Positions 14,453 through 14,749 of a stretch of DNA of 64,000 bases are shown here, piece by piece. Both the position numbers and the translations under genes were made by a program. The stretch is from assembly GCF_003334315.1 (NCBI RefSeq), contig NZ_QOWR01000008.1. One strand, given 5' to 3'. How positions within the stretch are numbered: position 1 is the stretch's first letter; each line of letters begins with the position of its first letter. The DNA is from Escherichia coli. Its GTDB lineage: Bacteria > Pseudomonadota > Gammaproteobacteria > Enterobacterales > Enterobacteriaceae. The notes beneath the pieces were generated by a model, which made no database searches, was not told the origin of the DNA, and saw only the letters and a list, made by a program, of their open reading frames with translations.

Positions 14453-14465
14453 ATGCACAATAAAA

Positions 14466-14552
14466 AAATCCCGACCCTGAGGGGGTCGGGATGAAACTTG
14501 CTTAAGCAAGAAGCACTTAAAAAATTCGTTACACCAGGAAATCTGATGTGTT
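14466..14552 (-). ncRNA. dsrA: DsrA small regulatory RNA
   Basis: reverse complement reads AACACATCAGATTTCCTGGTGTAACGAATTTTTTAAGTGCTTCTTGCTTAAGCAAGTTTCATCCCGACCCCCTCAGGGTCGGGATTT with terminal hairpin and U-tract. Confidence 0.9.
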
Positions 14553-14749
14553 CATCACCTTATCCGCAATTTTTTTCGCTGACAAGAAAATCTTCGCGAT
14601 ATGAATGATTAACGCTACTTATGAATAGAAATGTGACGTGCGTCACCCCTTGGTGGCTCTGGCGTCAACGGGATCGCTCCCGAAAAAATCATCTTTGATT
14701 ATTTGTGCTGTTTTGAGAATCATCCTGGTAAGGGGAGAACTGCGCGACC

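Follow-up and report, generated by a model that had tools for sequence, protein, structure and literature searches.

The question raised by this locus is what occupies the 297 nt between two reading frames on the plus strand of an Escherichia coli contig (14225-14452, 75 codons; 14750-15565, 271 codons), and to which transcript the hairpin behind the first frame belongs. We analysed a window of 64,000 nt, in which positions 14453-14749 make up the entire yodD-yedP intergenic region. In almost all E. coli records annotated with PGAP this region looks like empty intergenic DNA. Our results indicate that positions 14466-14552 on the minus strand are almost certainly the gene for DsrA, an Hfq-dependent, trans-acting small RNA (sRNA) of enterobacteria, in an E. 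coli other than K-12. The gene comes with its own promoter, its own terminator and the capacity to pair with rpoS and hns, and its terminator hairpin bounds the yodD mRNA as well.

DsrA is among the best-studied bacterial regulatory RNAs, and ties low temperature and acid stress to the general stress sigma factor RpoS and to silencing by H-NS. The locus is already known; it holds nothing novel and advances no open question, and it matters as annotation only. Recognising DsrA explains both the hairpin after yodD and a conserved promoter-like sequence. Some caution is warranted, however, in that the hairpin belongs neither to yodD alone nor to DsrA alone.

Identity of the gene and its setting

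A comparison of the whole window with Rfam 15 yielded a match to RF00014 (DsrA) at 14466-14552 on the minus strand, which scored 102.5 bits (E 1.5e-18; gathering score 60). The match is full-length, spanning model positions 1-85 of 85 and 87 nt of the window, with the RNA start (+1) at 14552. DsrA thereby occupies less than one third of the intergenic span. Positions 14462-14552 are identical at 91 of 91 nt to dsrA (b1954) of K-12 MG1655, where the annotated U tail of the RNA reaches the equivalent of 14462. An earlier note on this DNA had claimed that the complete 87-nt DsrA is present on the strand opposite to yodD and convergent with it, and had proposed an Rfam scan as the check. The full-length match, the identity to K-12 and the position of the yodD frame on the plus strand, at 14225-14452, bear this out, and we saw no evidence to the contrary.

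The setting of the gene is that of K-12. In the curated MG1655 record, ncRNA dsrA (b1954) lies at 2025223-2025313 on the minus strand, between yodD (b1953) and yedP (b1955), both on the plus strand, and downstream of rcsA and dsrB. We observed the same order in the window, fliR-rcsA-dsrB-yodD-dsrA-yedP-dgcQ. DsrB, YedP and RcsA were identified by NCBIfam equivalog models (for yedP NF002976, 501 bits). No NCBIfam model matched YodD; its identification (14225-14452, plus strand, 75 codons plus stop, convergent with dsrA) comes from DNA identity to K-12 b1953 and from the naming in RefSeq records that match at 100%. The remainder of the span, from the dsrA promoter to the yedP start codon at 14750 (14586-14749), contains a CRP-like site at 14632-14646. 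The intergenic region is accounted for by known biology, as the note had proposed. Besides dsrA, it holds the dsrA promoter and the region upstream of yedP.

The sequence is common among E. coli. Many RefSeq strains, among them HS30-1, match positions 14150-14800 at 100% identity, and the 91-mer occurs in 5339 of 5426 complete E. coli genomes (4972 of these at an identity of at least 99%). No match to the 91-mer was found in the other 87 of the 5426 genomes. The genome of E. coli B-1109 (NZ_CP117971.1, 2217363-2217432) matches only DsrA nt 22-91, in two places, which suggests that its dsrA may be disrupted or rearranged. None of 15 sampled PGAP-annotated E. coli RefSeq records had a dsrA feature under the match (e.g., L002, 2804-3100), and dsrA was annotated only in the curated K-12 record.

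A stretch of 917 nt (13675-14591) that includes dsrB, yodD, dsrA and the core promoter is without difference from K-12, and the flanking genes differ by ~1-2%. Since the flanks differ, the window represents another strain of E. coli. The identity of the 917 nt suggests either strong constraint or a segment that may have been shared recently.

Fold, targets and promoter of DsrA

The RNA read from the minus strand folds into three hairpins with a minimum free energy (MFE) of -31.9 kcal/mol, against an average of -16.2 kcal/mol for shuffled sequences (z = -5.2; 0 of 200 shuffles were as stable). Stem-loop 1 (SL1; DsrA nt 4-22, 14531-14549) has a 7-bp stem and an AUUUC loop in the MFE fold, and lies in the region that pairs with rpoS. 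It is followed by an AU-rich linker with stem-loop 2 (SL2; 14494-14527, DsrA nt 26-59 by the MFE fold for E. coli). A conserved core hairpin, CUUGC/GCAAG, lies at nt 43-56 (14497-14510). Stem-loop 3 (SL3; DsrA nt 61-85, 14492-14468) has a 10-bp stem with seven G-C pairs and a 5-nt loop, and is followed by TTTTTTTATTG (UUUUUUU). The terminator scan reported SL3 and its U tail (14462-14492; stem 14468-14492, T-run 14462-14468) as a Rho-independent terminator, the term also applied to SL3 in earlier work (PMC5766208). The features relevant to Hfq, an AU-rich linker and a 3' U tail, are thus present in the sequence; Hfq binding itself is known from the K-12 literature.

Homologues were searched with an exact 21-nt pattern (DsrA nt 8-28), which yielded 77 species loci; these belong to Enterobacteriaceae of at least 17 named genera. 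We aligned 72 distinct DsrA sequences. SL3 is paired in 95% of the cells of this alignment. In five of its ten pairs, both partners have changed in a compensatory manner (e.g., G-C to A-U in 18-23 of the 72 sequences), values that were reached by none of the shuffles or slid registers. SL1 is paired in 100% of the cells, but nt 8-28 are invariant by construction of the search pattern, which makes this figure uninformative. Across genera, 77.5% of the cells are paired for the extended SL2 seen in the E. coli MFE fold, and 99.4% for the short CUUGC/GCAAG hairpin, which has a nearly invariant stem and a variable loop. This pattern fits the NMR observation that SL2 is dynamic and adopts two folds (PMC5766208). 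The extended SL2 (14494-14527) is broken in most other genera, with 55 of the 72 sequences unpaired at two positions, for example. The long SL2 in the style of Rfam hence seems specific to Escherichia, as far as the alignment indicates.

The arrangement of genes is conserved along with the RNA. Among the 68 loci with enough flanking sequence, a convergent yodD was found in 64; the distance from its stop codon to DsrA nt 87 is -1 to 26 nt in 62 of these. A divergent yedP lies ~190-235 nt upstream in 50 of 64 loci. To judge from these loci, the tail-to-tail layout of yodD and dsrA is old. Exceptions were also observed: yodD is missing at three loci of Pseudescherichia vulneris and relatives (L011, L019, L063), which retain dsrB and rcsA, and two Buttiauxella loci (L066, L068) have a gap of 128-142 nt between yodD and dsrA.

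Both target genes lie outside the window, and pairing was therefore evaluated against rpoS and hns of K-12 with RNAduplex. DsrA nt 31-43 (14510-14522) form 13 contiguous pairs with hns +7 to +19, a core that falls at the known hns site. The rpoS-pairing region (DsrA nt 10-32, 14521-14543) forms its duplex with the rpoS leader through nt 10-17 and nt 20-32, which pair with -104 to -97 and -119 to -107, respectively. The published DsrA site on the leader extends from -119 to -95 (PMC5766208). The energies of the whole duplexes provide a weak control, as 12 of 300 and 18 of 300 mononucleotide shuffles were equally good, so that only ~95% of shuffles were beaten. Our argument hence rests on the position of the contiguous cores.

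Previous studies showed that DsrA is Hfq-dependent, that SL1 and the linker pair with the rpoS leader and thereby free the ribosome-binding site, and that the linker and SL2 pair with the hns, mreB and rbsD mRNAs (PMC5766208; PMC6537650). A study that recovered chimeras of DsrA with rpoS in vivo also names yodD and yedP as the neighbours of dsrA (PMC8545128). At low temperature, dsrA has a more active promoter, a more stable RNA and more efficient termination (PMC6582626; PMC4152358).

With Hfq dependence, temperature control, regulatory outcome and 3' ends taken from this literature on K-12, we infer the same behaviour for the present strain. In that case, dsrA would be transcribed from its own promoter (TTGTCA/TAAGGT), most actively at low temperature, and transcription would stop at SL3 and the U tail, its intrinsic terminator. 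The 5' third of the RNA (nt 10-32) would pair with the rpoS leader at about -119 to -97, which would open the inhibitory leader hairpin and activate translation of RpoS. The middle of the RNA (nt 31-43) would pair with the hns mRNA just past its start codon, and thus repress hns. The terminator hairpin, 13-15 nt past the yodD stop codon, would also mark the 3' end of the yodD mRNA, such that one palindrome would bound both transcripts.

The dsrA core promoter (14557-14585, minus strand) was placed by sequence reading and by conservation across genera. It has a -35 hexamer TTGTCA (14585-14580), a 17-nt spacer and a -10 hexamer TAAGGT (14562-14557). Four nucleotides (GATG) separate the -10 hexamer from the +1 at 14552 in this reading. 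Most of 74 loci have CTTGTCA and GATAAGGT/GATAATGT at a constant spacing to the start of the RNA. A generic sigma-70 scan of positions 13800-15000 called no promoter, because the -10 hexamer matches at only 3 of 6 positions. The promoter is identical to that of K-12 out to -39.

Upstream of -39, the intergenic region shows 10 differences from K-12 (14592, 14598, 14639-40, 14668, 14700, 14709, 14733, 14738 and 14749). Two of these fall in the CRP-like site TGTGACGTGCGTCAC (TGTGA-N6-TCAC; 14632-14646, plus strand), whose centre is found at about -87.5 from the dsrA +1 and ~110 nt before the yedP ATG. The central dinucleotide (14639-40) is TG here versus CA in K-12, the reverse complement of the palindrome centre. 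With a free spacer, the half-sites are kept in seven Escherichia sequences (six fetched loci and the window) and not in the other genera.

The pattern TGTGA-N6-TCAC has three matches in the window, versus 0.46 expected. A perfectly palindromic CRP-like site, TGTGATAAAAGTCACA, lies at 22724-22739 (plus strand), ~180 nt upstream of another Hfq-binding sRNA, RseX, for which we found a full-length Rfam match (RF01401) at 22917-23006 on the plus strand with 97.7 bits. Further along, the window contains a tRNA-Ser(CGA) gene (32758-32847, minus strand) and four identical tRNA-Asn(GTT) genes (33839-33914, plus; 47320-47395, minus; 49144-49219, plus; 51553-51628, plus), in the serU/asnT/asnW/asnU/asnV layout of K-12. 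The asn tRNA genes are known insertion sites of islands.

The hairpin between yodD and dsrA

A hairpin combined with a T-run was reported by the terminator scan for the minus strand alone. Read on the plus strand, the palindrome runs into GATGAAACTTGC, in which there is no T-run and which falls short of the scan threshold of at least 5 T in 8 nt. The T-run on the DsrA strand alone identifies the hairpin as DsrA's own intrinsic terminator. In this respect our results agree with the earlier note, which had read the hairpin as the 3' end of DsrA. Its wording, with the hairpin as the 3' end of DsrA and not the yodD terminator, is weakened by the fact that the yodD mRNA of K-12 ends at this very hairpin.

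This is apparent from Term-seq data of K-12, the sequence of which is identical here. The dominant 3' end of DsrA is at 2025229 (minus strand) in all three conditions, which corresponds to 14468 in the window and to DsrA nt 85; the curated primary 3' end of yodD is at 2025257 (plus strand), antisense to dsrA, which corresponds to 14496 (PMC7815308, supplementary file 1). Position 14496 lies 4 bases past the hairpin stem on the plus strand, and between the yodD stop codon and DsrA nt 87 there are 13 bases. As mapped in K-12, the yodD 3' untranslated region thus extends over 14453-14496 on the plus strand, antisense to DsrA nt 57-85/87. With 3' ends on both strands, the hairpin bounds both convergent transcripts and not DsrA alone. 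The description of DsrA as antisense-adjacent to yodD was likewise correct as to strand and orientation, and too weak as to distance: the yodD and DsrA RNAs overlap in antisense by about 29 nt and are not merely adjacent.

The yodD 3' end was found in LB at OD 2.0 and in M63 glucose, and was absent from the list for LB at OD 0.4 (PMC7815308). This fits the strong RpoS dependence of the yodD promoter (bioRxiv 10.1101/2023.11.09.566509). Read counts of DsrA and yodD cannot be compared, as the scales of the two strands differ: minus-strand values never fall below ~24,800 and plus-strand values go down to ~750.

How the yodD end arises can be explained in two ways, which we rate about equal. One explanation, to which we give a little less than an even chance, is that the hairpin genuinely acts as an intrinsic terminator in both directions, at which RNA polymerase arriving from yodD also halts, with 14496 as the product of termination. 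A curated primary 3' end only 4 nt beyond the stem in two conditions is in line with this, as are the stability of the plus-strand stem (11 bp in the fold) and the tight tail-to-tail spacing conserved in 62 of 68 loci. Moreover, bidirectional terminators are reportedly frequent in E. coli (Ju et al., 2019, as cited in PMC7815308). Yet the plus strand has no U tract (GATGAAACTTGC), the tail is T-poor in the homologues as well (alignment columns 59-64), and Term-seq alone cannot separate termination from processing. In the literature, we found no specific description of a bidirectional terminator between dsrA and yodD.

An alternative explanation, which might equally well apply, is that polymerases from yodD read through the hairpin or stop later, owing to Rho or to collision with polymerases on dsrA, and that 3'-to-5' exonucleases then trim the mRNA back to the protective hairpin. 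Such exonucleases usually come to rest a few bases beyond a highly stable stem, and this is where the yodD end sits. In favour of trimming, the plus strand carries no U tract behind the hairpin, and the end was detected only where the RpoS-dependent yodD is expressed (LB at OD 2.0 and M63). The curated lists contain no yodD 3' end farther downstream, which counts against trimming; the argument is weak, however, because of several peaks within 100 bp only the strongest survives curation.

The perfect antisense overlap of ~29 nt between the yodD 3' untranslated region and SL3, in a tail-to-tail layout that at least 17 named genera have kept, might exceed mere gene packing. Given that DsrA activates RpoS, on which yodD strongly depends, either the yodD 3' end or convergent transcription across the hairpin could act back on DsrA, in a local negative loop from DsrA via RpoS to yodD and back. 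Conceivable routes could be kissing of the GC-rich loops, cleavage by RNase III, or transcriptional interference that alters the efficiency of DsrA termination. We consider such a loop very improbable; both hairpins are very stable alone, which argues against pairing in trans.

The idea that the RF00014 match is a chance hit or a decayed copy, with the hairpin simply a yodD terminator and no functional sRNA, found no support other than that blank PGAP-annotated RefSeq records could mislead, and is refuted to the point of negligible probability by the full-length match (E 1.5e-18), by the 100% identity to the experimentally characterised K-12 gene and its core promoter to -39, by the T-run on the DsrA strand, by the strong minus-strand 3' end in all conditions in K-12, and by the covariation of SL3.

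Comparison with known systems

The closest comparison is DsrA of K-12 (b1954, RF00014), which agrees in all 91 nt, in its strand relation to yodD and yedP, in the core promoter to -39, in the three stem-loops and in the complementarity to rpoS and hns. Within the gene there are zero differences. The locus is the DsrA gene itself and not a relative. Every feature of the family that can be tested in silico was found; temperature control and Hfq binding are known from the literature on K-12.

DsrA of other Enterobacteriaceae (Salmonella, Citrobacter, Enterobacter, Buttiauxella, Atlantibacter and others) shares the invariant nt 5-28, the CUUGC/GCAAG hairpin and a GC-rich terminator with U tail, as well as the -35 and -10 elements, the convergent yodD and the divergent yedP. 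In the DsrA of Escherichia, by comparison, the U run of the linker is longer (UUUUUU), and a palindromic CUUGCUUAAGCAAG makes the extended SL2 possible.

RprA and ArcZ, two other Hfq-dependent activators of rpoS, resemble DsrA in that they, too, act by pairing with the upstream arm of the hairpin in the rpoS leader. However, their sequences, loci and inducing signals are unrelated to those of DsrA, and neither of them occurs in the present span.

The hairpin, finally, can be compared with bidirectional intrinsic terminators (Ju et al., 2019, as cited in PMC7815308), in which one palindrome likewise lies between convergent units, with 3' ends only a few bases beyond the stem on either strand. 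In the canonical form, an A tract before and a T tract after the stem provide a U tail on both strands, whereas the hairpin between yodD and dsrA has its U tail on the DsrA strand only.
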